Below, piece by piece: positions 332-63,026 of a stretch of DNA of 64,000 bases. Position 1 is the stretch's first letter, and the number at the start of each line of letters is the position of its first letter. Under the pieces are notes generated by a model. The model searched no databases, had not been told where the DNA came from, and worked only from the letters and a program-made list of their open reading frames with translations. Made by a program: the position numbers and the translations under genes. The DNA lies in NCBI GenBank assembly GCA_964546795.1, contig CAZJKG010000002.1:6307-70306 (forward strand), written 5' to 3'. This DNA comes from an uncultured Candidatus Saccharibacteria bacterium. Its GTDB lineage: Bacteria; Patescibacteriota; Minisyncoccia; Phycocordibacterales; Phycocordibacteraceae.

Positions 332-2394
332 GAACCAGAAAGCGGTTTGCGAGCGCGGGGCTTACGGGCCTTTGGTCCGGTGCCTTCCAGTTTGTATATC
401 TCGTCGCGGATGAGCGCGGCGGTTTCAAAATCAAGTTTTTCTACCGCCTCTTCCATCTCTTCTCGCTTTCGCTTGATGAACGCTTGAGGGTCGTCCTTGT
501 ACGCGAGCGTATCCAAGACGAGGAGTTCATCAATCGTGCGTTGATGCTCTGTGCGCATGGATGCGGCGATGTCATGGATCTCTTTCTTTATTGTTTTCGG
601 AGTGATGCTGTGCTTCTTGTTGTAGGCGACCTGGAGGGTGCGGCGGCGATTCGTCTCGCCGATGGCTCTTTCGAGCGAACCAGTCATGGAGTCGGCATAG
701 AGAATGACACGTCCGAGCACGTTGCGTGCCGCGCGTCCGATGGTTTGTATCAAACTGGTCTCGGAGCGCAGGAATCCCTCTTTGTCGGCGTCCAAGATGC
801 CGATAAGTTCAACTTCAGGCAGGTCTAGTCCCTCGCGCAAGAGATTAACGCCGACCAAGATGTCGAACTTCCCTCTGCGGAAATTGCTGAGGATATCAAT
901 GCGGTCAATCGTCTTCACATCCGAGTGGAGATATTCGGCCTTTATGCCGCGCTCCCGAAAGAATGCGGAAAGATCTTCCGCCATCCGTTTGGTAAGCGTC
1001 GTCGCAAGTGCGCGGCCACTGCGTTTGATGACCGTCTCTGCCTCACTGATGAAATCGGCAATCTGTCCTTTATACGTTCCTGTTTCGCTCACGGCGCGGA
1101 CGACAAGCTCGGGGTCAATGAGGCCGGTCGGGCGGATGACTTGCTCCACTATCTGCTCGGAATGCTTGCGTTCGTAGGGTCCCGGCGTCGCACTCGTATA
1201 CAATACTTGTCCGACGCGCTCCTCGAACTCTTCAAACCGGAGCGGGCGGTTGTCGCGCGCCGAAGGGAGACGGAAACCGTACTCAACAAGCACATCCTTG
1301 CGCGACTTGTCGCCCGCATACATGCCGCCTATCTGTGGAACAGTAACGTGCGATTCATCAATGACGGTAAGGAAGTTTGCAGAGCCGTCTTTCTTATGCG
1401 GGAAATAAGAAAGAAGCGTATGCGGCGGCTCCCCCGGCGCGCGCCCGTCGAAGTGGCGCGAATAATTCTCAATGCCGCTCGTATAGCCAAGTTCCTTGAT
1501 GAGCGCAAGGTCGTGGAGCGTGCGGCGCTTCAGTCGCTCGGCCTCCAAGGGCTTCTCCTCGCGCTTAAATTTCGCGAGCTGTTCTTCCAATTCAAGTTTG
1601 ATATCGATAATTGCGCGCTCGCGCTCCTCTTCACTCGTGATGAAGTGCTTCGCCGGAAAGACAAAGAGTGATTTCGGTTCTTTGACTTTCGCGCGCGAGA
1701 CCGGGTCAAGCTGATCAATATGGGCGATGTCGTCGCCATCGAACGTAACGCGATAGATTGCGCGTTCGTTGACAGGCATGAATTCAAGCGAATTCCCGAT
1801 GGCGCGCAGTTGCCCGGGGTTGAGGTCGGCATTCGTTCGCTCAAAATAAATTCCCACGAGTTTTCTGATGAGTCCTCCCCTGCCTCCTGCTACTGTCTCC
1901 TGCTTCTGAATTTTGACATGCACTTTCTCATATTCCTCCGGCGAGCCAAGGCCATAGATGGCGGAGACCGATGCGACGATGATGACATCCTTGCGCGTGA
2001 GGAGCGCTTGCGTCGCAGCGTGCCGCAAACGGTCTATCTCTGCATTTATCATCGCTTCTTTCTCGATGTACGTATCTGAGTGCGCGATGTACGCTTCTGG
2101 CTGATAATAGTCGTAATAGGAAACGAAATAATGTACGGCATTCTCGGGAAAAAATTCCCGATATTCTTGCGCAAGCTGCGCCGCAAGTGTCTTGTTATGA
2201 GCGAGCACAAGCGTCGGTTTGTCGTGCGAAGCTATGACATTCGCTACGGTAAACGTCTTTCCGCTTCCGGTCACGCCAAAAAGAGTCTGGTGCCGCAAAC
2301 CGCGCTCGAGACCCTGCGCAAGCGCCTTGATGGCCTCGGGCTGATCCCCCGCAGGAAGAAATGGGGTGTGTAGTTTGAAATCGCTCTTGTTCAT
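328..2394 (-). CDS. uvrB: Excinuclease ABC subunit B (UvrB)
   Basis: 688 aa. N-terminal Walker A 'GVTGSGKTFT', helicase motifs, and a C-terminal UVR motif 'AALIRDEIYKLEG'. Typical UvrB length and architecture. Confidence 0.95.
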   Translation of the reverse strand: MNKSDFKLHTPFLPAGDQPEAIKALAQGLERGLRHQTLFGVTGSGKTFTVANVIASHDKPTLVLAHNKTLAAQLAQEYREFFPENAVHYFVSYYDYYQPEAYIAHSDTYIEKEAMINAEIDRLRHAATQALLTRKDVIIVASVSAIYGLGSPEEYEKVHVKIQKQETVAGGRGGLIRKLVGIYFERTNADLNPGQLRAIGNSLEFMPVNERAIYRVTFDGDDIAHIDQLDPVSRAKVKEPKSLFVFPAKHFITSEEERERAIIDIKLELEEQLAKFKREEKPLEAERLKRRTLHDLALIKELGYTSGIENYSRHFDGRAPGEPPHTLLSYFPHKKDGSANFLTVIDESHVTVPQIGGMYAGDKSRKDVLVEYGFRLPSARDNRPLRFEEFEERVGQVLYTSATPGPYERKHSEQIVEQVIRPTGLIDPELVVRAVSETGTYKGQIADFISEAETVIKRSGRALATTLTKRMAEDLSAFFRERGIKAEYLHSDVKTIDRIDILSNFRRGKFDILVGVNLLREGLDLPEVELIGILDADKEGFLRSETSLIQTIGRAARNVLGRVILYADSMTGSLERAIGETNRRRTLQVAYNKKHSITPKTIKKEIHDIAASMRTEHQRTIDELLVLDTLAYKDDPQAFIKRKREEMEEAVEKLDFETAALIRDEIYKLEGTGPKARKPRARKPLSGS

Positions 2395-2489
2395 AAGCGC
2401 GTCATTCTATCACTTCTTGCCCGTGAGATGCCGCTTCGGCTATCTCACCGGGGTCCCCCGCCGGAGGCCATGGTGTATGGAGCTTGAAA

Positions 2490-3704
2490 TTAGCCACGGT
2501 ATTCACGAAGGAATTCTGCACGATACTCATCAAATCGTCCATCGAGGATGGCCTGCCGCGCTCCGGAGACGAGGTTCAAAATGAAGCCAACGTTATGCAT
2601 GGAGGCGATGATGGCTCCAAGCATTTCCCCTGAACGCAACAGATGCGCCACATACGCCCGTGTGAAATGTGGACTTCGTAAGTCCACATGTTCCTCAAGT
2701 GAGGTGAAGTCGGTGCGATATTTTTCATTCTTTAAGTGAATGAGACCATGCTTTGTGTAGATGGAGCCATGGCGGCCGAGGCGTGTTGCAGCGACACAGT
2801 CAAAAAGGTCCATGCCATTCGCGATACCTTCCAGAATGTCGCCCGGCTCGCCGATGCCGAGAAAATGCCGTGGCAACTCTTCGGGAAGTTCCTCTATCGC
2901 AGCAATAAGTGCGCCGCGCATATCCTCCTTGGAGAAGGAACCGCCGATGCCGATGCCGTCAAAGCCGAGCGAGGATATCTCACGCGCTGATTCTTTGCGC
3001 AGATCCTCATGTCGACCTCCCTGCACGATACCGAATAGTGCCTGCCGCTTGTTCGCGTCCATATTTTGCCGGTGCGCTGTAAGGGAGCGCGCCGCCCAAC
3101 GATGCGTACGCTCCATCGCCTCCCGCTGATACTCATAGGGAGCTGTCGGCGAGGTACATTCGTCAAACGCAAAGAACATATCCGCGCCAAGCGCGTGCTG
3201 GATCTCTACCGAACGCTCGGGCGTGAAGCGGTGCAACGAGCCGTCGAGATGCGAAGTGAAAGAAACTCCCTCGTCATCAATGACCGCAAGCTGTCCATGC
3301 TGGCTAAGAACATCTTCATCATACACTGCGACCGACTCTTCTTTGGAAGCATTCTCTTTGATGAATTTGGAGATGGTCTTCCCGAACGCGGCGCCAAGCG
3401 AAAAAACCTGAAAACCGCCGGAGTCAGTCATGGTAGGGCCATCCCAGCCCATGAATGTTCCGAGACCGCCGGCCCCTTGCACGACTTTTTCGCCCGGTTG
3501 AAGATAGAGATGGTAGGTGTTCGCAAGTACGACTTCGGCGCCGAGCCGCTTCAATTGTTCGGGAAGAATGCCTTTTACATTTGCTTTGGTACCCACCGGC
3601 GCAAAAGCGGGTGTGTGAATATCGCCGTGAGACGTAGCGAGTACGCCCGCACGCGCGGCGCTTCGCGCCGCGCGCTTCTCTATTTTAAAATCAATCGCAC
3701 TCAT
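2490..3704 (-). CDS. tgt: Queuine tRNA-ribosyltransferase (tRNA-guanine transglycosylase)
   Basis: 404 aa. N-terminus 'FKIEKRAARSAARAGVLATSHGDIHTPAFAPVGT' and internal 'LYLQPGE' match the Tgt family. Confidence 0.9.
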   Translation of the reverse strand: MSAIDFKIEKRAARSAARAGVLATSHGDIHTPAFAPVGTKANVKGILPEQLKRLGAEVVLANTYHLYLQPGEKVVQGAGGLGTFMGWDGPTMTDSGGFQVFSLGAAFGKTISKFIKENASKEESVAVYDEDVLSQHGQLAVIDDEGVSFTSHLDGSLHRFTPERSVEIQHALGADMFFAFDECTSPTAPYEYQREAMERTHRWAARSLTAHRQNMDANKRQALFGIVQGGRHEDLRKESAREISSLGFDGIGIGGSFSKEDMRGALIAAIEELPEELPRHFLGIGEPGDILEGIANGMDLFDCVAATRLGRHGSIYTKHGLIHLKNEKYRTDFTSLEEHVDLRSPHFTRAYVAHLLRSGEMLGAIIASMHNVGFILNLVSGARQAILDGRFDEYRAEFLREYRG

Positions 3705-24363: not shown

Positions 24364-25941
24364 TTATGTATTGGAGAGCAAGTTAAGGACCGCCGTATAT
24401 GCGGAACTGATCAAGAATCCGCGATCAAAACTAGTGGAGGTTAGTGGAGAAAGCGGTGATATATAGGAACTGCTGTCAGGATAGGTGCTTCCGGAAGACG
24501 GTGGCGCGTACGAACTGTCCGGTGAGGATTGACTCTTTTCTTCGTAGGTCTCAGTACCTCCTGAAGACGGAGAATACGAAGGTGATGGATATGTATTTTG
24601 ATCTTGTTGGTATTTCTGATACTCGGATTCATACTGCTTTTGATATTCTTGCTGATACTGACTCTGGTATTGCTTCTGATACTCGTCTTGATATTGATTT
24701 TGAAAATCTCCGGTATTCGGAGGAAGAGACATCATTCCGTCCGGTACGTCGCCCTGTCTTCCTTGCATCACCCTCGTGGGAAAGGCCTCTATTCCCTCCT
24801 CTGTGCCCCGGAAACTCCGCTCGCCCTCAAATCCCTGCATCATCCCCTCCGGAGAGAGATGCTCGTCAGGACGCTGCATGAAGCCATGTTCTTCGGCAAA
24901 TTCTTGGCATTCATTTTGATGTGACGCATCCTCGCAATACGTTTTACACTCAAATCCTTTGCAACCGCCCGGACCGGTACTATTGAAAAGTTTCTCGGCC
25001 TGATCGAGCTGTTCTTGTGGAATAAGATCGTGCTCTTTGGCAAAGGCAAAACACACTTCGCGATTGTCCGGATTATCGCAGTATGTGCGGCATTCTTCTC
25101 CGCGGCAGCCGCCGGGACCCTCGATATTCATGAATTTCCGCGCACGCTCGCTATCCTCTTTCGAAATGAGACCGTTCTCTTCCGCGAACGCAAGACACTC
25201 CTCACTATGAGTGGAATCTTCGCAATAGGTTCTGCATTCAACGCCTCTACAACCTCCCGGACCGGTTTTGCCGATAAAGTGCTTTGCTTTGACAAGCTCT
25301 TCCTGCGACATGAGTCCATGTTCTTCGGCAAAAGCAAGACACACCTCCGCATGCGAGACATCCTCGCAGTATATTCGACATTCCTCTCTTTTACAGCCAC
25401 CTGGACCCGCTTCAGTTCCCATCCTCTTTGCCATAACTGCCTCTTCTTTTGAAATGAATCCGTTTTCCTCCGCAAACGCGAGACATTCGTCGAAGTGTGC
25501 ATCGTCCTCGCAGTACGCTTTGCATTCAATACCATGACAACCACCCGGTCCTGACTTCTCTTTGAGAATTCGCGCATATTTAGCATCCTCCGCTTTTATG
25601 ATCCCGTGCTCCTCGGCAAAGTCAATGCACTCTTCAAAATGTTCCTTGACTTCACAGTACGCTCGGCACTCCACCCCCATGCAGCCCCCCGGACCTTCGA
25701 TACTGCCGATTTTCCGAGCTATCGCTGCGTCCTCCTTACCAATCAGATCGTGCGCTTCAGCAAAAGAGAGACATTGATTGATATTCGCTTTAAGATCGCA
25801 ATATACTTTGCATGCTTCCTTCGATTCACAACCACCGAGTTCTGCAACCGGAAACATGATATCGACCTCCGCGGCGTACGCTACGCCTCCGACGAGCAGT
25901 GTGAGCGCAAGAAAGTTCGTCGCGAATATCCTGCGGGACAT
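24364..25941 (-). CDS. Secreted cysteine-rich tandem-repeat protein with a Q/Y/S/P-rich low-complexity C-terminal region
   Basis: Signal peptide 'MSRRIFATNFLALTLLVGGVAYAA'. Eight tandem ~44-aa repeats of consensus 'GPGGCxGxECxxYCEDxxHxxECLAFAEEHGLIsxEE..kAkk', each with four Cys and one His. The tail is 'QNQYQDEYQKQYQSQYQQEYQKQYESEYQKYQQDQ' followed by an S/P/Y-rich stretch. Confidence 0.7.
   Translation of the reverse strand: MSRRIFATNFLALTLLVGGVAYAAEVDIMFPVAELGGCESKEACKVYCDLKANINQCLSFAEAHDLIGKEDAAIARKIGSIEGPGGCMGVECRAYCEVKEHFEECIDFAEEHGIIKAEDAKYARILKEKSGPGGCHGIECKAYCEDDAHFDECLAFAEENGFISKEEAVMAKRMGTEAGPGGCKREECRIYCEDVSHAEVCLAFAEEHGLMSQEELVKAKHFIGKTGPGGCRGVECRTYCEDSTHSEECLAFAEENGLISKEDSERARKFMNIEGPGGCRGEECRTYCDNPDNREVCFAFAKEHDLIPQEQLDQAEKLFNSTGPGGCKGFECKTYCEDASHQNECQEFAEEHGFMQRPDEHLSPEGMMQGFEGERSFRGTEEGIEAFPTRVMQGRQGDVPDGMMSLPPNTGDFQNQYQDEYQKQYQSQYQQEYQKQYESEYQKYQQDQNTYPSPSYSPSSGGTETYEEKSQSSPDSSYAPPSSGSTYPDSSSYISPLSPLTSTSFDRGFLISSAYTAVLNLLSNT
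24774..25860 (-). repeat. Tandem ~132-bp coding repeats (8 copies) within the Cys-rich protein gene
   Basis: Periodic recurrence at protein level of 'GPGGC..EC..YCE....H..EC.AFAEEHG'. Boundaries approximate. Confidence 0.65.
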
Positions 25942-26487: not shown

Positions 26488-27120
26488 TTATATCTTTCGT
26501 ATTCGTTTCCCACTGGCGTTCGTAAAGTAATCGCTTTTCTTCCCATGGTTAACTTTTCCGCCATGAGTATCAGCGGTGCGATGAAAAAACTCGTTTCCAG
26601 CGGTTAGTGAATTTAGATTCCCTTTGATACGTTTCTGATGGCGACCTGTTGTTAAGTGAGTTGTTGGTTGATATCCAAATTCCGCATACATGTCATAAGC
26701 AATTTCCCGTGAATCCAAACCAATCCGTTGTTGTTCTTCCAGAATACGTGCCTTTCTTTTTGACAACTGCTCTGTCTTCTTTTGAATTGGGGGTGCAATA
26801 GATTTTAATGCCGACTCATTGATTGTTCCCTCTTCGATCTGTTGCAACGCTTGTTGAACCTGATCTTCAAATTTGATAATTTCTTGCAGCTTTCCCTCTA
26901 TGCGCCAAAATTCAGCTTCCTTTTCATTCAGCACGTCACGTTCGTGCAGATTCAGTGAGCGAGATTTCATCTCAGATGTCTGTTGATATACGTCTTGTTG
27001 ATGCTCTTTTAATTGAGTTCTCAGCTCCGATAATTCTTCTGCTCTTTGCCAGAGCAATGGTTCATAGGTTGTTTTTAGTGATTCCAGGTTTTTCTTCTGT
27101 TGTGAGCTTTCTATCGACAT
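26488..27120 (-). CDS. Coiled-coil hypothetical protein (210 aa) in the low-GC island
   Basis: Q/E/K-rich heptad-like sequence, AT-rich codon usage, and an upstream RBS 'GGAGGAGG'. Preceded by copy R1 of the duplicated element. Confidence 0.45.
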   Translation of the reverse strand: MSIESSQQKKNLESLKTTYEPLLWQRAEELSELRTQLKEHQQDVYQQTSEMKSRSLNLHERDVLNEKEAEFWRIEGKLQEIIKFEDQVQQALQQIEEGTINESALKSIAPPIQKKTEQLSKRKARILEEQQRIGLDSREIAYDMYAEFGYQPTTHLTTGRHQKRIKGNLNSLTAGNEFFHRTADTHGGKVNHGKKSDYFTNASGKRIRKI

Positions 27121-27181
27121 TGGTCAATTATACCAAACAAGTTCAATCCTCCTCCACTGGCTGACCTCATCGGATTCATGC

Positions 27182-27248
27182 ATTATACCGTTAAGCCCCC
27201 ATTGAGTTTTCTGGCGGCTTTTTTGAACTCAAATCGACGCACTTCGGA
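27182..27248 (-). promoter_or_regulatory. Island promoter/operator element, copy R1 (contains a perfect -10 TATAAT on the minus strand)
   Basis: About 85% identical over its first 33 bp to copy R2 at 28211–28267, followed by a second conserved block after a short diverged stretch ('attataccgtYaagcYccMattgagttttctRg ... aaatcgac...tcgga'). It sits upstream of the coiled-coil gene. Confidence 0.45.
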
Positions 27249-27288
27249 ATGGGGTCGAAATTAGACAAACTAGACACTTTTAACCATT

Positions 27289-28203
27289 TTAATAATCCTT
27301 CCAAAGTTTGTCCTGATAAGGATCTACAATTTTCCCCTTACTATTCCGGACTTCAAAATGGAGATGCGGTCCGACACCCCCATAACCCCCTGAGTAAGCA
27401 ATGATCTGTCCTTCTTTCACGGCGACCGATTTAGTGTAGTCAGTAAGTTGAGCTTCAATTTCATCTACCAATTTTGTGCAGTGCAAGAGCCAGGAAACAT
27501 AGCTATTGGCGTGTTTGATATAGAAAGAGTGCCATCCTTCCCAAGCAGTAGGATTATTGAGCCCAAGATTCTTTAGTGCCCACGTTCTGTTAACTCCATC
27601 AATCGGATCAGTTTGTGCTTTAAATAAGTCCCCGTCTGCAGGGGCTATAAGTTGCGTTCCTGGAATGCACTTAAAGTCATAACCCGCATGGCCATCATAA
27701 TTTAGATAAAACGTTGGCCCATATTTGTCTCCTGCACCTGGTGCACCTACATAATTAATTTCCCCGGCAGAGAAAAATGGAGATGGAACTTTCTTTGCAT
27801 ACCCTAAAGCACTCGTTCCGGCACAAGGATCCCCGTCTCCGACTTCTCCATTAAAAGATCGTGTCTTTTGATCTTTCGCATTCAAGCCCCACGGCTTATT
27901 GCTACTTGGATCAATCGCTGTGCCCATATGGTCAATCACGGCAGTGATTTTTGCGGTACGGGACGTAACGGGCCTTCCATTTGCGTCATTGAGTTTGACT
28001 GGACAAATGAGGAATCCGGTGCTCGTTGGTACGACTGGAGCGGGAGCCGGTTCTGGCGCTGGCGGCACAATCACTGGAGGTGGTACAGGTTGCGGAGTCG
28101 GAGGTAGATTAATCGGGGCCGGTACAGGTTGAACCTTTGATTTAGAAAGGTTCGTAAGGAAAGTCTTAAGTACCTCTCCCAAGATTTTGAGAAACGACTG
28201 CAT
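27289..28203 (-). CDS. M23 family metallopeptidase (LytM-like peptidoglycan endopeptidase) with a Pro-rich N-terminal linker
   Basis: C-terminal 'GPHLHFEVRNSKGKIVDPY' is the M23 HxH zinc-site signature. Pro-rich 'PVPAPINLPPTPQPVPPPVIVPPAPEPAPAPVVP'. The track ORF starts at TTG 28230; the first ATG is at ~28203. The TATAAT of R2 is only ~7 nt upstream, so the transcript may be leaderless. Confidence 0.8.
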   Translation of the reverse strand: MQSFLKILGEVLKTFLTNLSKSKVQPVPAPINLPPTPQPVPPPVIVPPAPEPAPAPVVPTSTGFLICPVKLNDANGRPVTSRTAKITAVIDHMGTAIDPSSNKPWGLNAKDQKTRSFNGEVGDGDPCAGTSALGYAKKVPSPFFSAGEINYVGAPGAGDKYGPTFYLNYDGHAGYDFKCIPGTQLIAPADGDLFKAQTDPIDGVNRTWALKNLGLNNPTAWEGWHSFYIKHANSYVSWLLHCTKLVDEIEAQLTDYTKSVAVKEGQIIAYSGGYGGVGPHLHFEVRNSKGKIVDPYQDKLWKDY

Positions 28204-28210
28204 ATCTACT

Positions 28211-28267
28211 ATTATACCGTCAAGCTCCAATTGAGTTTTCTAGAACCTTAAATCGACCCTCCTCGGA
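28211..28267 (-). promoter_or_regulatory. Island promoter/operator element, copy R2
   Basis: Duplicate of R1. The minus strand reads ...AAAACTCAATTGGAGCTTGACGGTATAAT immediately 5' of the M23 peptidase ATG. Confidence 0.45.
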
Positions 28268-28309
28268 TAGTTTGTTGACTCGCAATTACCCGTTAGTACT
28301 ACAATGATC

Positions 28310-29227
28310 TTAGATCATAATCTTTTCTGAACGAATGAGATGATCCATCTTCTGATAAGCATGGATAGCAGTTGTGTGGTCTTTCTTTTTCATCACCTTA
28401 GCTATTTGTGGGAAAGATAATTTCGCATTTCTCCTTAAGAAATATATGGCGAGATGTCTAGGAAAAACAAGATTCGCCATTCTTCTGCTTCCCAATAAAT
28501 CGTCGATTGGTATAGCGTATGCCTTACTTATACTTGCAATGATATCTTTAACTTCTACCAGTTCGGACGGATCGATTGGTATTGGTTTTTTAGGGGGTGC
28601 CGGAACTGCCCCATTGAGTTTGAGTATTGTTGTATTTAGAATTTGTCTTATTCGCTCCCGCGTGATGCCAAATTTCCCTGCAATTACTTCATAAGTCTTG
28701 CCTTCGAGTCTTAGTCTCATTATTTCATTTTCTCTTTCATTCATTCTGATGTTGCCCGTAGCACGAGCTGGAGCTGAATTGTAAATAAAAGCTGGATTCC
28801 CTTTCTCTAGCACACCAAAGAAGTCATCGATGATAGAAAATTCTGTAAAAGCTGTAATTTTCTGTCCATCGTCATAAACAATTTTCATTTCATTATCAAA
28901 ATCATTTGATGAGATTTGCTTCAACAAATCGTGTAGAACTTCATTTCTTTTGTTGCGATAACGGTCAAATAGTCCTCTCTTTTCTTTGGGTAACCACTCG
29001 CTATCAAATAATAATTTAATTAATTCGGAAAGATTGTACTGAACGATTCTCTTTCTCAAAGCAGCTAAAATAGCTGGGTCTGCATCTCTTATCGATAGCG
29101 ACAATTTAGTTTCGACAAACAATTTTATTAGACTTTCTATGTAGGCACTTTGTAATACAAAAGCTTCGAGAAGAAGGTTCTTCTGTCCATAGTTTTCTAT
29201 TCTTTCTTTTAGGTCATCTTTCCTCAT
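28310..29227 (-). CDS. DNA-binding regulator fusing sigma-70 region 4 (HTH) to a DnaA C-terminal (domain IV) DNA-binding domain
   Basis: 'ERENEIMRLRLEGKTYEVIAGKFGITRERIRQI' matches sigma-70 region 4. 'VKDIIASISKAYAIPIDDLLGSRRMANLVFPRHLAIYFLRRNAKLSFPQIAKVMKKKDHTTAIHAYQKM' matches DnaA domain IV, including the DHTT(V/A)(I/L)HA signature. There is no AAA+ domain. About 38% GC. Confidence 0.7.
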   Translation of the reverse strand: MRKDDLKERIENYGQKNLLLEAFVLQSAYIESLIKLFVETKLSLSIRDADPAILAALRKRIVQYNLSELIKLLFDSEWLPKEKRGLFDRYRNKRNEVLHDLLKQISSNDFDNEMKIVYDDGQKITAFTEFSIIDDFFGVLEKGNPAFIYNSAPARATGNIRMNERENEIMRLRLEGKTYEVIAGKFGITRERIRQILNTTILKLNGAVPAPPKKPIPIDPSELVEVKDIIASISKAYAIPIDDLLGSRRMANLVFPRHLAIYFLRRNAKLSFPQIAKVMKKKDHTTAIHAYQKMDHLIRSEKIMI

Positions 29228-29232
29228 TTTTG

Positions 29233-29303
29233 CTGCCCGACAGGGATTCGGACCCCAATTAACGGCTTCAAAGGCCGCTGTCCTACCATTAGACGATCGG
29301 GCA
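29233..29303 (-). tRNA. tRNA-Gln (anticodon TTG), with an atypical T-arm
   Basis: Minus strand: TGCCCGA-TC-GTCT-AATGGTA-GGAC-A-GCGGC-CTTTGAA-GCCGT-TAAT-TGGGG-TCCGAAT-CCCTG-TCGGGCA-G. Perfect 7-bp acceptor stem. The T-loop reads TCCGAAT, with C where the near-invariant U55 is expected. The T-stem needs two G·U pairs. It lies immediately 5' of the low-GC island. Confidence 0.55.
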
Positions 29304-29352: not shown

Positions 29353-30504
29353 TCATTTGTCAGGACCTTCGGGGAAGAGTTCCAAAACGGCGAGTTCGAG
29401 AGGAAGCGCGGGAATGGGTGCGTAGCGGATGCGCTCGGCGGCGGTCAGGAAGGCAAGCATGGTCGCATGGGTAATGCCCCTAGACGGCTCGTTCCACGAG
29501 CCGCCGGGCGACCCAGCTTCGCTGGGTTTAGCCTTCCCTTTTCCTGCACTGAGCGACTTGTCCTGAGTTTTATCGAAGGAAGTCGAAGTGGCGAATTTTT
29601 CAAGCGCGGAGAATTCGTCCGCGCCGAGCTCGTCCGCGAGCGAGGTGCGAAGTTCTGGTGCATAACGAATGAGGAGCGTGGCGCGGAGGGCCTCCAACAC
29701 AAGTTCCAGAAACAACTTCATGTCGGCACCGGATTTCGCCGCCTGCTCAATGGCGGTAAGTGCCTTGCCGCGTCCGCCAGCTGGCGGAGCTGCGGCGAGT
29801 GCGCTCACGAGCGCATGCACTTGTTCGCGCCGCGGTGCGCCAGTCGCCGCCTCCACCGTCTCGCGCGACAATGTCTTCCCTTTCGTAGCGGCAAATACCT
29901 TTTGCAACACCGAAAGCGCATCGCGATACGAGCCCTCGGCGAGTATCGCGATAAGCTCAGCGGAGTCCGGTGCGAGCGTATACCCTTCTTTCTTTGCGAC
30001 CGCCACGGTCATCTTCGCGAGCACCACTCGCGTCGGCTTTTTGAATTCAAACACTTGGCAACGCGACTGCACCGTCTCCGGTACTTTCTCAAGCTCGGTG
30101 GTCGCGAGAATAAAAACCGCATACGCAGGCGGCTCTTCAAGCGTCTTCAGAAATGCATTCCACGCGCCCTTGGAAAGCATGTGTACCTCGTCCAGAATGT
30201 AGACCTTATAGGGTGACTGAAACGGCAATGTGTAGACACCCTCGGTGAGGGCGCGAATGTCTTCTACGCTGTTGTTGCTCGCGGCATCCACCTCGTAGAG
30301 GTCATTCTCGGTGCAGCCAATAGCGCTTGCGAAGATGCGCGCGACCGAGGTCTTCCCGAGACCACGGCTGCCGGCAAATAGATACGCATGACCTATCTTC
30401 TTTGACTTTGCCGCTTCTTCAAGCGGTTTTGTCACCTGCTCCTGCCCAATGACCTCCGCAAAAGTGGCCGGCCGGTGAATACGATAAAGGGACTGATGCG
30501 CCAT
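29353..30504 (-). CDS. dnaX: DNA polymerase III subunit gamma/tau
   Basis: 'YRIHRPATFAEVIGQEQVTKPL...AYLFAGSRGLGKTSVARIFA' is the clamp-loader AAA+ N-terminus. 383 aa. Confidence 0.9.
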   Translation of the reverse strand: MAHQSLYRIHRPATFAEVIGQEQVTKPLEEAAKSKKIGHAYLFAGSRGLGKTSVARIFASAIGCTENDLYEVDAASNNSVEDIRALTEGVYTLPFQSPYKVYILDEVHMLSKGAWNAFLKTLEEPPAYAVFILATTELEKVPETVQSRCQVFEFKKPTRVVLAKMTVAVAKKEGYTLAPDSAELIAILAEGSYRDALSVLQKVFAATKGKTLSRETVEAATGAPRREQVHALVSALAAAPPAGGRGKALTAIEQAAKSGADMKLFLELVLEALRATLLIRYAPELRTSLADELGADEFSALEKFATSTSFDKTQDKSLSAGKGKAKPSEAGSPGGSWNEPSRGITHATMLAFLTAAERIRYAPIPALPLELAVLELFPEGPDK

Positions 30505-52398: not shown

Positions 52399-53166
52399 TT
52401 AGCGAGCTGGCGACGAGGTCGCCGCGGTCGTTGTCGCAGTAAGAAGTGCGCTTATCTTGTTGGCGGGAATAAGAAGTCCGGGTGTTCCTCCGGTGCTGAT
52501 GCCGATGAGATTGCCGGCAAGATCCACTGCAGCGCTTCCAGTGCCTATATCCGGCAGTGTCGTGTGAATGTTCTTTTCGCTGATTCGCGCGACGATGCCG
52601 GTGGAAGCGGAGCCATCATCACCAATAGCAAGCGCCGTTTGACCGAGTTTCAAATCGTTTGCACCGATGAGGATTGGAGAGGTCGCTTTCGGCAGCGTCG
52701 CATCATCCGCAAAACCGTAAATGGTGATGCCGCCGCCTTCATGTGCGAGAGACGCGGGAATAAACGCACCATTCGGGAATTTGATGAGTGCCTCTTTCGG
52801 TAATATGTCCTGGGCCGCAGTCACGACAGCGCGGGATTTGGAAAGATATGTGCCGATGGAGATGGCTGGTGTAGAGGTGCCAATCGTCGCATCATAGATT
52901 GCAACGATGCGGGACGCATCCATGCCAAGAGCATTCATGACGAGATCCTGATTGGAAGGCGCGGGTGCCTGAAGCACTGCGGCGGGAGCCGCCTGCGCAA
53001 CGGTCTCAATGGTATGCTCGACGACGCGATTCACTGTCTGCACGACGAAGGGTGGTGCTTTATCGAGCAAAGAAACCGTCAAGATGCCGGTCGCGACCGA
53101 GGTCACAAAGTTCACGAGGATTGTGAGAAGAATCAGTTGGGACTTTGAGAGTTCCTCTATATTCAT
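52399..53166 (-). CDS. Secreted/membrane-anchored protein with a possible degenerate trypsin-like (S1C/HtrA-like) domain
   Basis: N-terminal TM helix. C-terminal 'DIGTGSAAVDLAGNLIGISTGG' loosely resembles the G(D/N)SGGP...G.VIGI motif of S1 peptidases. Weak assignment. Its ATG lies inside repeat copy B. Confidence 0.3.
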   Translation of the reverse strand: MNIEELSKSQLILLTILVNFVTSVATGILTVSLLDKAPPFVVQTVNRVVEHTIETVAQAAPAAVLQAPAPSNQDLVMNALGMDASRIVAIYDATIGTSTPAISIGTYLSKSRAVVTAAQDILPKEALIKFPNGAFIPASLAHEGGGITIYGFADDATLPKATSPILIGANDLKLGQTALAIGDDGSASTGIVARISEKNIHTTLPDIGTGSAAVDLAGNLIGISTGGTPGLLIPANKISALLTATTTAATSSPAR

Positions 53167-53290
53167 CCCATTAGAAATAGGACACGGATACGCTATGTGC
53201 AGCGCAACCGAACCCTATCCAATTAGAATTGGTAACCGAACCCGTCTTCTGGTGTCGACCTATGCGTCCGTGGTTTCTAACGGGATTCAT
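53161..53290 (-). repeat. Copy B of the ~125-bp element with terminal inverted repeats
   Basis: 'tcatcccAttagaaataggacacggatacgc...cgaaccctatccaattagaattggtaa...tgcgtccgtggtttctaacgggattcat'. It exactly fills the gap between the cysteine desulfurase stop (53303) and the ATG of 52399–53166, and that ATG is embedded in the right-hand repeat. Confidence 0.55.
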
Positions 53291-61121: not shown

Positions 61122-61204
61122 AGTTCTTTTGATTTGAAAGGAGGTTTTCGAAGGGCCGCGCGACTAAAAATCGTGCGGCCTTTCTCTTTTTCTATTCACT
61201 GCCC

Positions 61205-61474
61205 CTATGGCGAAATCTTGTGTATCGGTGAAATGCCGAATGTCCCAAGCGCGAGATTGATGATGCCGTACGCACCGAAGATGATGACGAGGCCGATGAG
61301 GCCCCAGAAGATAGCGCTCTTGCCCTCCTCACGCTTCCCTTCGTCCCCCGCCTGCCGGATGAACTCAAACACGCCCCACAGGAATACGACAAACGCGCCC
61401 GCGATGAGCAGCAGAATAATCGGATTGATAATCTGGACGACGACTTTCTGGAGAAACTCGTTGAGAACGGGCAT
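61205..61474 (-). CDS. TrbC/VirB2-like pilin-family small membrane protein, paralog 1 of 6
   Basis: '...INPIILLLIAGAFVVFLWGVFEFIRQAGDEGKREEGKSAIFWGLIGLVIIFGAYGIINL': two hydrophobic helices flanking a short charged loop. Confidence 0.5.
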   Translation of the reverse strand: MPVLNEFLQKVVVQIINPIILLLIAGAFVVFLWGVFEFIRQAGDEGKREEGKSAIFWGLIGLVIIFGAYGIINLALGTFGISPIHKISP

Positions 61475-61484
61475 TTATCTAATA

Positions 61485-61910
61485 TCAAATTCCAAAAGGC
61501 GCTTTCGGTATACCACCGGTTGGCGCTCCACTAGTAAAACCAGTGGTACCAGTGAGGATATTCACGAGACCCCATACCGAGATCATAACGAAAAAACCGA
61601 TGAGGCCCCAGAGCATGAGATTCTTCCCTTTCTCCCTTACCTCTTCATTGTTGGCACCCAGAATGAAGGTATCGAACGCGCCCCACAAGAACACGATGAA
61701 AGCGACTGCGAAGAGCACTGGGACAAGAACATTGTTGATAGTATTGATAACAAGCGAACCAGCAGTCGAGAGATTGGTGGGCGTTTGAGCCAAAGAAACG
61801 AGCGGTAGAGCGAATGCAGCGAGTGTTCCCGAAAATATAGCGAGGGCTTTTTTCATAGTATGGGTAAGTGGATAACGAAGTAATTGTAACGTTCCTCTAG
61901 ACAGAGTCAA
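61485..61910 (-). CDS. TrbC/VirB2-like pilin-family small membrane protein, paralog 2
   Basis: The likely start is the internal 'MKKALAIFSGTLAAFALPLVSLA' signal peptide at ~61856. Core 'LVPVLFAVAFIVFLWGAF...NEEVREKGKNLMLWGLIGFFVMISVWGLVNIL'. Confidence 0.5.
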   Translation of the reverse strand: MTLSRGTLQLLRYPLTHTMKKALAIFSGTLAAFALPLVSLAQTPTNLSTAGSLVINTINNVLVPVLFAVAFIVFLWGAFDTFILGANNEEVREKGKNLMLWGLIGFFVMISVWGLVNILTGTTGFTSGAPTGGIPKAPFGI

Positions 61911-61937
61911 CTATACCTTCCCGTCTCGTGGGGATAG

Positions 61938-62228
61938 CTACAGTTTTGGATACGGGGGCGCACCGCCGCCCGGCACGAGCCAGAACGTGGCATTAACGAT
62001 CGCCACCAACCCCCAAAGAGAAAGAATAACGACGAAGCCAATGATGCCCCAAAGGACGAACTGCCGGCCCGTCTGACGCTCGGTGTCGCTCGCCGCACCG
62101 AGAATAAAATACTTGTAGACACCCCACAGGAAAGTGATGAATGCTATGGCTATCAAGGCCGGAACGAGAAGAACATTGATGATGTAGAGGATGTCACCCC
62201 CGTATTTTTGCAAAGGCATCAAATTCAT
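61938..62228 (-). CDS. TrbC/VirB2-like pilin-family small membrane protein, paralog 3
   Basis: 'INVLLVPALIAIAFITFLWGVYKYFILGAASDTERQTGRQFVLWGIIGFVVILSLWGLVAIV'. Confidence 0.5.
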   Translation of the reverse strand: MNLMPLQKYGGDILYIINVLLVPALIAIAFITFLWGVYKYFILGAASDTERQTGRQFVLWGIIGFVVILSLWGLVAIVNATFWLVPGGGAPPYPKL

Positions 62229-62239
62229 AACAAAACAGA

Positions 62240-62743
62240 TTACCGGACCGGCGGCGGCGGTCCGAATGACGAATAGGACGTCGGTTGGGGCAGTGCAAAA
62301 GAGCCCTGAAGGCCGAATGTGTTAGCAACGACATTCACAAGTCCCCAGAGCGATATCATGACCGCAAATGCAATGAGGCCCCACAGGATGATCTTATGCC
62401 CTTCCTTCACTCTCTCGGGATCTCCTACGGAAAAAATATACGCACGGGCAATGCCATAGAGGAACACGATGAAAGAAACCGCGAAAAGGAGCGGTACCAA
62501 CACGCCATTGATGACGTTAATAATAGTAATCGCGATGCCACTAATACCATACCCTCCTCCGAATCCGCCACCAAATGGCATACCAAAGATGCCATTCGAG
62601 AAAACTTGCGACGAGTACGAACTGATGCCTGGTACCGTATAACTGGTACGCAATTCTTGTGCTGATGTGAAGATTGGCATGAGAAGCACTATGAATACTA
62701 AAGCGACACGAACGACGGGTCTCATATGCGGGAAGTATGACAC
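62240..62743 (-). CDS. TrbC/VirB2-like pilin-family small membrane protein, paralog 4 (longer Gly-rich N-terminal part)
   Basis: Signal 'MRPVVRVALVFIVLLMPIFTSAQ'. Core 'LVPLLFAVSFIVFLYGIARAYIFSVGDPERVKEGHKIILWGLIAFAVMISLWGLVNVV'. Confidence 0.5.
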   Translation of the reverse strand: MSYFPHMRPVVRVALVFIVLLMPIFTSAQELRTSYTVPGISSYSSQVFSNGIFGMPFGGGFGGGYGISGIAITIINVINGVLVPLLFAVSFIVFLYGIARAYIFSVGDPERVKEGHKIILWGLIAFAVMISLWGLVNVVANTFGLQGSFALPQPTSYSSFGPPPPVR

Positions 62744-62744
62744 A

Positions 62745-63026
62745 TCAGGCGGTCGGCGCGATGCCGAGCGTGGATAACAAGATATTCACGAATCCCCATA
62801 CCGAGAAGAGCACTACCATGCCAATAATGCCCCAGAAGACGAATTGTCGTCCTTCGGAGCGCTTCCCTTCATCGCTGCCATGGAGGAAAAAATAGTTCAC
62901 GACACCCCAGATGAAAACCGCAAAAGCGAGAGCAAAAATAACCGGTATGACGACAGTGTTGAAAAGGCCGATGATACCGATGGACCCGCCGCCAACGTAT
63001 TGAGCAAAGGTCATAATTTTGGCCAA
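62745..63026 (-). CDS. TrbC/VirB2-like pilin-family small membrane protein, paralog 5
   Basis: 'VVIPVIFALAFAVFIWGVVNYFFLHGSDEGKRSEGRQFVFWGIIGMVVLFSVWGFVNIL'. Confidence 0.5.
   Translation of the reverse strand: MAKIMTFAQYVGGGSIGIIGLFNTVVIPVIFALAFAVFIWGVVNYFFLHGSDEGKRSEGRQFVFWGIIGMVVLFSVWGFVNILLSTLGIAPTA

Follow-up and report, generated by a model that had tools for sequence, protein, structure and literature searches.

Promoters of the sigma-70 type that consist of a -10 hexamer only and drive leaderless mRNAs have been mapped in Actinobacteria (e.g. Mycobacterium) and in Deinococcus. To our knowledge, almost nothing has been established experimentally about promoters and gene regulation in the Patescibacteria (CPR), which are mostly uncultured, and our literature search on leaderless transcription in the CPR gave nothing usable. 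The locus described here resembles the mapped -10-only promoters in the TANNNT/TATAAT hexamer placed 6-10 nt ahead of the start codon, in the lack of a Shine-Dalgarno sequence and in a -35 element that is weak or missing, but it differs from them by an extra 60-70 nt of duplicated upstream sequence and by being known here from sequence alone. It can also be compared with paralogous promoter/operator regions and with tandem P1/P2 promoters. As in these systems, near-identical upstream sequence reaching down to the -10 is shared by two neighboring genes, one of which (encoding a coiled-coil protein) has two candidate promoters, and the gene of a candidate regulator adjoins. Unlike paralogous operator regions, the element contains no palindromic or otherwise recognizable operator, and its two copies are not yet a regulon.

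The window, by which we mean the whole 64,000-nt stretch of DNA that was analyzed, belongs to an organism that the source names of the homologues place in the Minisyncoccia (Patescibacteria/CPR). From 23.3 to 30.5 kb, the minus strand is the sense strand of every gene. Read in that direction, the order is dnaX, tRNA-Gln, the gene of a 305-aa protein, copy 2 of the element, an M23 metallopeptidase gene, copy 1 of the element and the coiled-coil gene (Table 1), followed by the genes of two small membrane proteins, a 525-aa Cys-rich repeat protein and an AI-2E transporter. At about 26.2-29.2 kb the GC content drops from the window's 51% to 36% in the gene of the 305-aa candidate regulator, 47% in the M23 gene and 41% in the coiled-coil gene. 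PADLOC gave no match here, and PHROGs gave generic sigma and peptidase matches only.

Table 1. Features of the locus in minus-strand order, with positions given in the numbering of the window
Feature	Position	Strand	Remarks
dnaX	29353-30504	-	
tRNA-Gln(UUG)	29232-29303	-	3' end 4 nt before the regulator ATG
305-aa protein	28310-29227	-	Directly upstream of copy 2; candidate regulator with helical N-terminal domain, Sigma70_r4 and Bac_DnaA_C
Element copy 2	28211-28288	-	Block A 28279-28288, block B 28247-28267, block C 28211-28241
Copy 2 -10, perfect TATAAT	28211-28216	-	7 nt before the M23 ATG; predicted promoter of a leaderless mRNA
M23 metallopeptidase gene, 304 aa	27289-28203	-	Flanked by both element copies
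Element copy 1	27182-27263	-	Block A 27254-27263, block B 27228-27248, block C 27182-27212; in the 168-nt spacer from M23 stop to coiled-coil start
Surplus 10 nt between blocks B and C of copy 1			A-tract AAAAAAGCCGCC region
Copy 1 -10, perfect TATAAT	27182-27187	-	Putative distal promoter P1; ends 61 nt before the coiled-coil ATG
TCCGATGAG, third block-B core TCCGAnGnG	27166-27174	-	42 nt upstream of the P2 -10; weak lead
Third GGTATAAT	27127-27134	-	Putative proximal leaderless promoter P2, 6 nt before the coiled-coil ATG
Coiled-coil protein gene, 210 aa	26488-27120	-	Conserved Patescibacteria family, no Pfam domain

Direct reading of the sequence located two direct copies of the element on the minus strand, i.e. 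in the sense of the genes, about 1 kb apart. Each copy is ~80 bp long and terminates in a perfect TATAAT, and the two bracket the M23 gene as direct repeats, copy 2 occupying most of the 106-nt spacer between the stop codon of the regulator gene and the M23 start. A preliminary description of this DNA had reported the repeat at this place, with both copies in the same orientation and about 85% identical over the first 33 bp, and pairwise alignment bore out the similarity. The block that ends in the -10 (block C, AGAAAACTCAATnGnrGCTTrACGGTATAAT, found by both the MAFFT alignment and a repeat finder) is identical at 28 of its 31 nt, and the similarity is real. The extent of the element had been given too narrowly. 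The two conserved blocks that had been noticed stand, block B (TCCGArGnGnGTCGATTTrAG, 21 nt) being identical at 17 positions in the MAFFT alignment, but the similarity runs some 15-20 nt farther upstream and takes in a third block that had been missed (block A, TAATTkCGAs, 8 of 10 nt identical), the farthest from the -10.

In the alignment, copy 1 (27263 to 27182) reads TAATTTCGACCCCAT------TCCGAAGTGCGTCGATTTGAGTTCAAAAAAGCCGCCAGAAAACTCAATGGGGGCTTAACGGTATAAT and copy 2 (28288 to 28211) reads TAATTGCGAGTCAACAAACTATCCGAGGAGGGTCGATTTAAGGTT----------CTAGAAAACTCAATTGGAGCTTGACGGTATAAT, the copies differing by a 6-nt indel that separates blocks A and B and by a 10-nt indel that separates B from C. Stretches of 12 and 10 nt are invariant, whereas spacers vary and there are indels. 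The three mismatches of block C without exception sit in the spacer between the invariant 12-mer AGAAAACTCAAT, strictly kept at about -37 to -26, and ACGGTATAAT. In both copies the likeness breaks off abruptly at the final T of TATAAT.

Chance similarity between AT-rich sequences, the outcome that would have undone the preliminary description, did not occur. A degenerate 30-mer matched the window exactly twice at up to three mismatches and never in 100 shuffles, and the Smith-Waterman score between the two intergenic regions was 47, compared with 15.2±2.3 (maximum 30) in 2000 Markov shuffles. An nhmmer profile built from both copies recovered the two (E = 1e-23 and 3e-21), no other match in the window and 162 fetched loci (1.8 Mb) reaching an E below 0.29, and searches with degenerate patterns found no third copy in the window or in these related loci. 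The exact pattern CTCAATNNNNGCTTNACGGTATAAT had no match in genome, viral and metagenome contig collections, so that the search for further copies, which had been proposed at the outset, ended with the same two in the window, the 1.8 Mb of related loci and the three public collections. On this sequence evidence, the repeat is a genuine duplication of a promoter region, in two copies and specific to the lineage. With two copies and no orthologous ones, purifying selection on the upstream blocks is not separable from a recent duplication.

To see what a promoter looks like in this genome, the upstream regions of the 63-65 likely genes of the window were listed. A hexamer resembling TATAAT precedes the start codon of many of these genes by a few nt, and others show a classical AGGAGG. 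Hexamers matching TATAAT at five or more of the six positions occurred 2.0 times per position at 4-11 nt before the starts versus 0.40 times at 12-73 nt, a ~5-fold enrichment of -10 hexamers that rests on 16 hexamers and 63 genes. An arrangement of the leaderless type is present at about a quarter of the window's genes, and no -35 consensus appeared among the window promoters when aligned on their -10. Judging from these regions, promoters in this genome seem to depend mainly on the -10, and many mRNAs seem to be leaderless. This supports the view that the TATAAT, perfect in both copies, is a real -10, as had been claimed from the start. TTGACG, tried as a motif common to several lineages, occurred at chance rate (31 occurrences in the window) and was dropped.

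The copies of the element have no -35 hexamer (AAAACT, matching at 2 of 6 positions, is read at 17-nt spacing) and no TGn extended -10 (the bases preceding the -10 are CGG), and a scan for promoter consensus listed neither of them. As the other likely promoters are also without a -35 consensus, the missing -35 is no argument against function here. If the -10 alone suffices for core promoters in this genome, then the 25-70 nt of conserved upstream sequence go beyond the core promoter, and the ~70 nt common to the two copies would have to stem from a recent common origin or else form a cis-regulatory site that both share.

Copy 2 lies immediately 5' of the M23 gene, as had been described. The TATAAT is followed by AGTAGAT and then the ATG, and this ATG (28203) is backed by the N-termini of homologues of ~300-308 aa from many Patescibacteria (MEKFLKII..., MSKVIQIL..., MLDMQSFLKIL...). 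A -10 within 4-11 nt of a confirmed start and the lack of a Shine-Dalgarno sequence are the marks of a leaderless gene, and since the 7-nt spacing between TATAAT and ATG fits the window-wide enrichment, with no -35 involved, transcription of the M23 peptidase gene very probably starts from copy 2 and yields a leaderless mRNA. The earlier suggestion that the peptidase mRNA may be leaderless is strengthened to a probable one by the enrichment and the homologue-confirmed ATG.

Copy 1 is placed differently. It had been described as lying immediately 5' of the coiled-coil gene as well, which does not hold at the distance given in Table 1. The start of this gene at 27120 is backed by 85-93% identical homologues beginning MSIES, MSIEG or MSMES, even if the deposited annotation of the protein is a shorter form of 160 aa; another close homologue is 64% identical. 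The proximal TATAAT (27127-27132) has the leaderless spacing of 6 nt and copy 1, at 61 nt, does not; a transcript from copy 1 would have a leader of 55-60 nt with no Shine-Dalgarno sequence near the coiled-coil ATG. Because the gene owns this proximal TATAAT, copy 1 looks redundant; it probably serves the coiled-coil gene as a distal promoter, if it is not a relic. The possibility that P2 is a further, degenerate copy of the element was considered and rejected, as the likeness beyond the octamer GGTATAAT consists of a marginal 10/11 match to ATCCGAnGAGG (p about 0.04). Measured upstream from the -10, the core of block B begins at 42 nt in P2, 51 nt in copy 2 and 61 nt in copy 1, the match upstream of P2 having been found post hoc with the same p of about 0.04, and TCCGANGNG showed no window-wide enrichment.

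The explanation that we favor, and consider reasonably probable, is that the element is a locally duplicated, lineage-specific promoter module made of a sigma-70-type -10 and ~70 nt of upstream cis-regulatory sequence. In this model, copy 2 would drive the M23 gene, with RNA polymerase starting ~7 nt past the TATAAT, at or beside the ATG, to give the leaderless mRNA, and copy 1 would be a second, distal promoter feeding the coiled-coil gene besides its own proximal leaderless one. The 12-mer AGAAAACTCAAT and the upstream TCCGAnGnGnGTCGATTT block would be the presumed contact sites of a shared trans-acting factor or of RNA polymerase itself (UP-like); if they are, the M23 and coiled-coil genes would be co-regulated, and the upstream blocks may then be a shared operator. 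A length difference of 10 nt would leave the helical face of the distal block unchanged, a phasing argument that rests on a single indel. The duplication probably arose as the M23 gene came between the regulator and coiled-coil genes, which both differ from it in GC content. We infer promoter activity of both copies, binding of a factor and co-regulation from the sequence.

The alternative that survives best is that the repeat is a neutral recombination scar, left when the M23 gene was inserted or the promoter segment duplicated, with copy 2 acting as a promoter and copy 1 and the upstream blocks functionless and not yet eroded. We regard this as rather unlikely, although a good part of the evidence is compatible with it. 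One gene is flanked by the copies as direct repeats, its GC content differs from that of its neighbors, the coiled-coil gene is already served by a proximal TATAAT, and the element was found nowhere else in the sequences searched. The M23 orthologues (loci L076-L082) point the same way: they lie in varied, partly defence-like neighborhoods (KAP NTPase, Z1/methylase, SMC-like), the genes downstream of them are unrelated to one another and to the coiled-coil gene, and the element is absent upstream of them. Such varied contexts are consistent with the M23 gene having moved into its present place, and the same move could have produced the duplicated promoter. What speaks against a mere scar is that the divergence is uneven, with the invariant 12- and 10-nt runs set against variable spacers and indels, that a perfect TATAAT is retained in copy 1, that the boundary of the repeat coincides with the end of the -10 hexamer, and that the indel equals one helical turn, each of these points being weak with n = 2 copies. 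The invariant runs with the mismatches confined to the spacer, the 10-nt indel and the TATAAT kept in copy 1, together with the third TCCGAnGAG, make us lean towards a function of the upstream blocks, and none of these features is statistically strong.

The preliminary description had proposed that the blocks are a dedicated operator, bound by the adjacent 305-aa protein, which would control both promoters. The position and the make-up of this protein are what recommend the proposal. Its gene immediately precedes copy 2, both being on the minus strand, and the AlphaFold model (pLDDT 85) has an all-helical N-terminal domain and two DNA-binding domains that are modelled with confidence. One is a sigma domain 4, with an rmsd of 1.0 Å to 4g6d, and the other a DnaA domain IV, with an rmsd of 1.4 Å to the DnaA-box complex 1j1v. 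The family is very small, with ~13 members among 5.8 billion clusters, all of them from Minisyncoccia and other Patescibacteria; when genome, metagenome and viral collections were searched more widely for the regulator, nearly everything that came back was a true DnaA gene, and in the literature we found nothing usable on the combination of sigma region 4 with DnaA domain IV. An RNxxxH motif, invariant in the N-terminal domain, recalls HEPN domains, a reading for which the sole Pfam support is DUF4145 at E = 0.15 and which we keep as a lead.

The same DNA-binding domain argues against the proposal. The family alignment retains R257, P273, D283, H284, T285 and H289, which we take, from 1J1V, to match the base-contact residues R399, P423, D433, H434, T435 and H439 of E. 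coli DnaA, and with all six kept the 305-aa protein would be expected to prefer canonical DnaA boxes. No DnaA box TTATNCACA with up to two mismatches is found inside either copy, and the surroundings of the element gave none either. The loose resemblance to a DnaA box that had been seen in TTATACCGT could not be upheld, as this sequence has four mismatches to TTATCCACA (three if position 5 is left free) and its TTATA is accounted for by the -10 read on the opposite strand. At the homologous locus L001, two perfect TTATCCACA boxes, and not the repeats, adjoin the regulator homologue in non-coding DNA. Compared with promoters controlled by DnaA boxes, the likeness thus lies in the DnaA domain IV of the neighboring protein with its base-contact residues, and the difference in an element without the box; the protein itself differs from DnaA in having no AAA+ domain and, instead, sigma region 4 and an unrelated helical N-terminal domain.

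Homologues of the regulator in other lineages offer a further argument for such an operator. Their genes usually follow rplM-rpsI and are themselves followed by variable genes, and in two other lineages a repeated intergenic element, which differs between them and is specific to the lineage, stands before each of these downstream genes. The element in L003 (GGTTCCCACGTCGTCCCAAACTGCCAGC) is present in 3-4 copies, ~23 nt upstream of -10-like hexamers, and that in L001/L002 (GTTGCGTTTGTTGACGTTTTGAAATAGCATTGCGG plus GGGGATTnnCCCCAAACGCTA) in three copies, the last of them before purC/purE. Neither has any sequence in common with the window's element, even though the regulator proteins are 47-59% identical across lineages. 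Moreover, downstream repeats occur in three of the eight lineages with a regulator homologue, the other five having none comparable, and comparable short local repeats were found at 28 of 150 unrelated control loci. The association of regulator homologues with downstream repeats is suggestive at most, and the link between the element and the adjacent 305-aa protein appears slightly disfavored. We consider control of both promoters by this protein to be unlikely. We would give about as little credence, or slightly less, to the wider idea that proteins combining RNxxxH (HEPN-like), sigma region 4 and DnaA domain IV form a new class of dedicated transcription factor, controlling variable downstream cargo genes through lineage-specific repeated elements, with the window's element as its operator.

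The copies could also be attachment or recombination sites, either of an integron-attC-like cassette or of an island with its att site at tRNA-Gln. As with Campbell-type or cassette insertions, direct repeats bracket a single gene of differing GC content; the low-GC stretch of ~3 kb adjoins a tRNA gene, and in L003 the repeated elements come right after each small gene. This is very improbable, as Pfam scans of the 17 sizeable ORFs between 16.6 and 33.3 kb revealed no recombinase, and no partial copy of tRNA-Gln longer than 15 nt was found within 10-14 kb on either side, the best matches of 10-15 nt being at chance level. The element also differs from integron attC sites in that there is no integrase and there are no further cassettes, nor any attC-type hairpin or inverted repeats (fold z-scores 0.1-0.8), and in that the -10 of the repeat is well placed for the downstream ORF; no copies were found elsewhere in the collections and loci searched. 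Finally, a transcribed structured RNA (leader, small RNA or terminator) or AT-rich chance similarity can practically be set aside, since the short hairpin that copy 1 can form (UCGAC...GUCGA, then UUUGAGUU) is not kept in copy 2, fold energies are no better than those of shuffles on either strand (z = 0.1 to 0.8), Rfam gave no match other than tRNAs, and chance is excluded by the 30-mer shuffles and the Smith-Waterman score.

A two-copy local duplication of a promoter is, taken alone, a common result of genome rearrangement and raises no new question; the duplicated promoter described here is real but fairly ordinary. For the Patescibacteria, the paralogous promoter pair and the window-wide evidence for -10-only promoters provide concrete sequences for promoter tests, and the adjacent protein with its two HTH domains, as a candidate regulator, lends itself to binding assays.

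The start of the gene for the 305-aa candidate regulator, the protein encoded upstream of the second copy of the duplicated TATAAT-ending element (a probable promoter), lies only 4 nt from the 3' end of tRNA-Gln(UUG) (…GGGCAGC AAAA ATG), and tRNA 3' processing could therefore yield an essentially leaderless mRNA. A 13-nt match to the core of the duplicated element (CCCCATTGAGTTT, the complement of AAACTCAATGGGG) was found within the coding sequence of this regulator, where it encodes the linker that joins the two HTH domains. This match is probably fortuitous, as its flanks do not align with the element. For the coiled-coil gene downstream of the first copy, the deposited annotation gives a protein of 160 aa starting at Met51. 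The start at 27120 and the 210-aa form are backed by homologues at 85-93% identity, and the gene appears to be truncated in the annotation.

Coordinates of the features discussed (window positions except for L001 and L003, loci of other lineages)
Feature	Position	Detail
tRNA-Gln(UUG) 3' end/regulator ATG	29225-29303	
305-aa regulator gene	28310-29227 (-)	
13-nt core match	28607-28619	
Coiled-coil gene	26488-27120 (-)	
Secreted 525-aa protein	24364-25941	six Cys-rich repeats, 144 nt (48 aa) each
Second repeated element, ~130 bp	11745-11870; 53162-53290	~78% identity across the aligned stretch
ORF at second repeated element	52399-53166	start codon inside one arm
Tandem array 1	12637-14084	300-nt repeats at 12748/13440
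Tandem array 2	61134-63026	conserved 56-nt coding segment, five copies, at 61253-62836
L001 non-coding region	8943-9806	perfect DnaA boxes at 9301 and 9604; tRNA at 9390-9473, opposite strand
L001 complementary pair	~8975; ~9232	
L003 GGTTCCCACGTCGTCCCAAACTGCCAGC copies	1171-3001	three full, one abbreviated

Other repeats were observed in the window. The secreted Cys-rich protein follows the pattern …GPGGC.G.EC..YCED..H..EC..FAEE.G… in its 48-aa units, ends in a Q/Y-rich, low-complexity C-terminal region and had no match in Pfam, PHROGs or PADLOC. Both copies of the second repeated element sit at gene boundaries and carry inverted repeats at their ends (TTCATCCCGTTAGAAATAGGA ... ATTTCTAACGGGATTCAT); a MITE-like element is one possible reading, a palindromic site of regulation another. 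Small paralogous genes form the two tandem arrays.

Homologues of the regulator were also considered in their own surroundings. In L001, the homologue is followed on its 3' side by an 860-nt non-coding region, and likewise in L002 and L012. The long-range complementarity within the L001 region, between TTCCGATAATGGCCG and CGGCCATTATCGGAA, suggests a structured RNA of ~270 nt, and this putative RNA had no Rfam match. In L003, all copies of GGTTCCCACGTCGTCCCAAACTGCCAGC are found downstream of the regulator homologue (59% identical), each directly 3' of a small gene's stop codon and ~23 nt upstream of a -10-like hexamer belonging to the next gene.

In the regulator itself, the N-terminal domain is helical and bears an invariant, HEPN-like RNxxxH motif; sigma-70 region 4 comes next, and then a DnaA domain IV in which every DnaA base-contact residue is kept. 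This combination of domains is unusual, and only ~13 homologues were found, every one of them in Patescibacteria.
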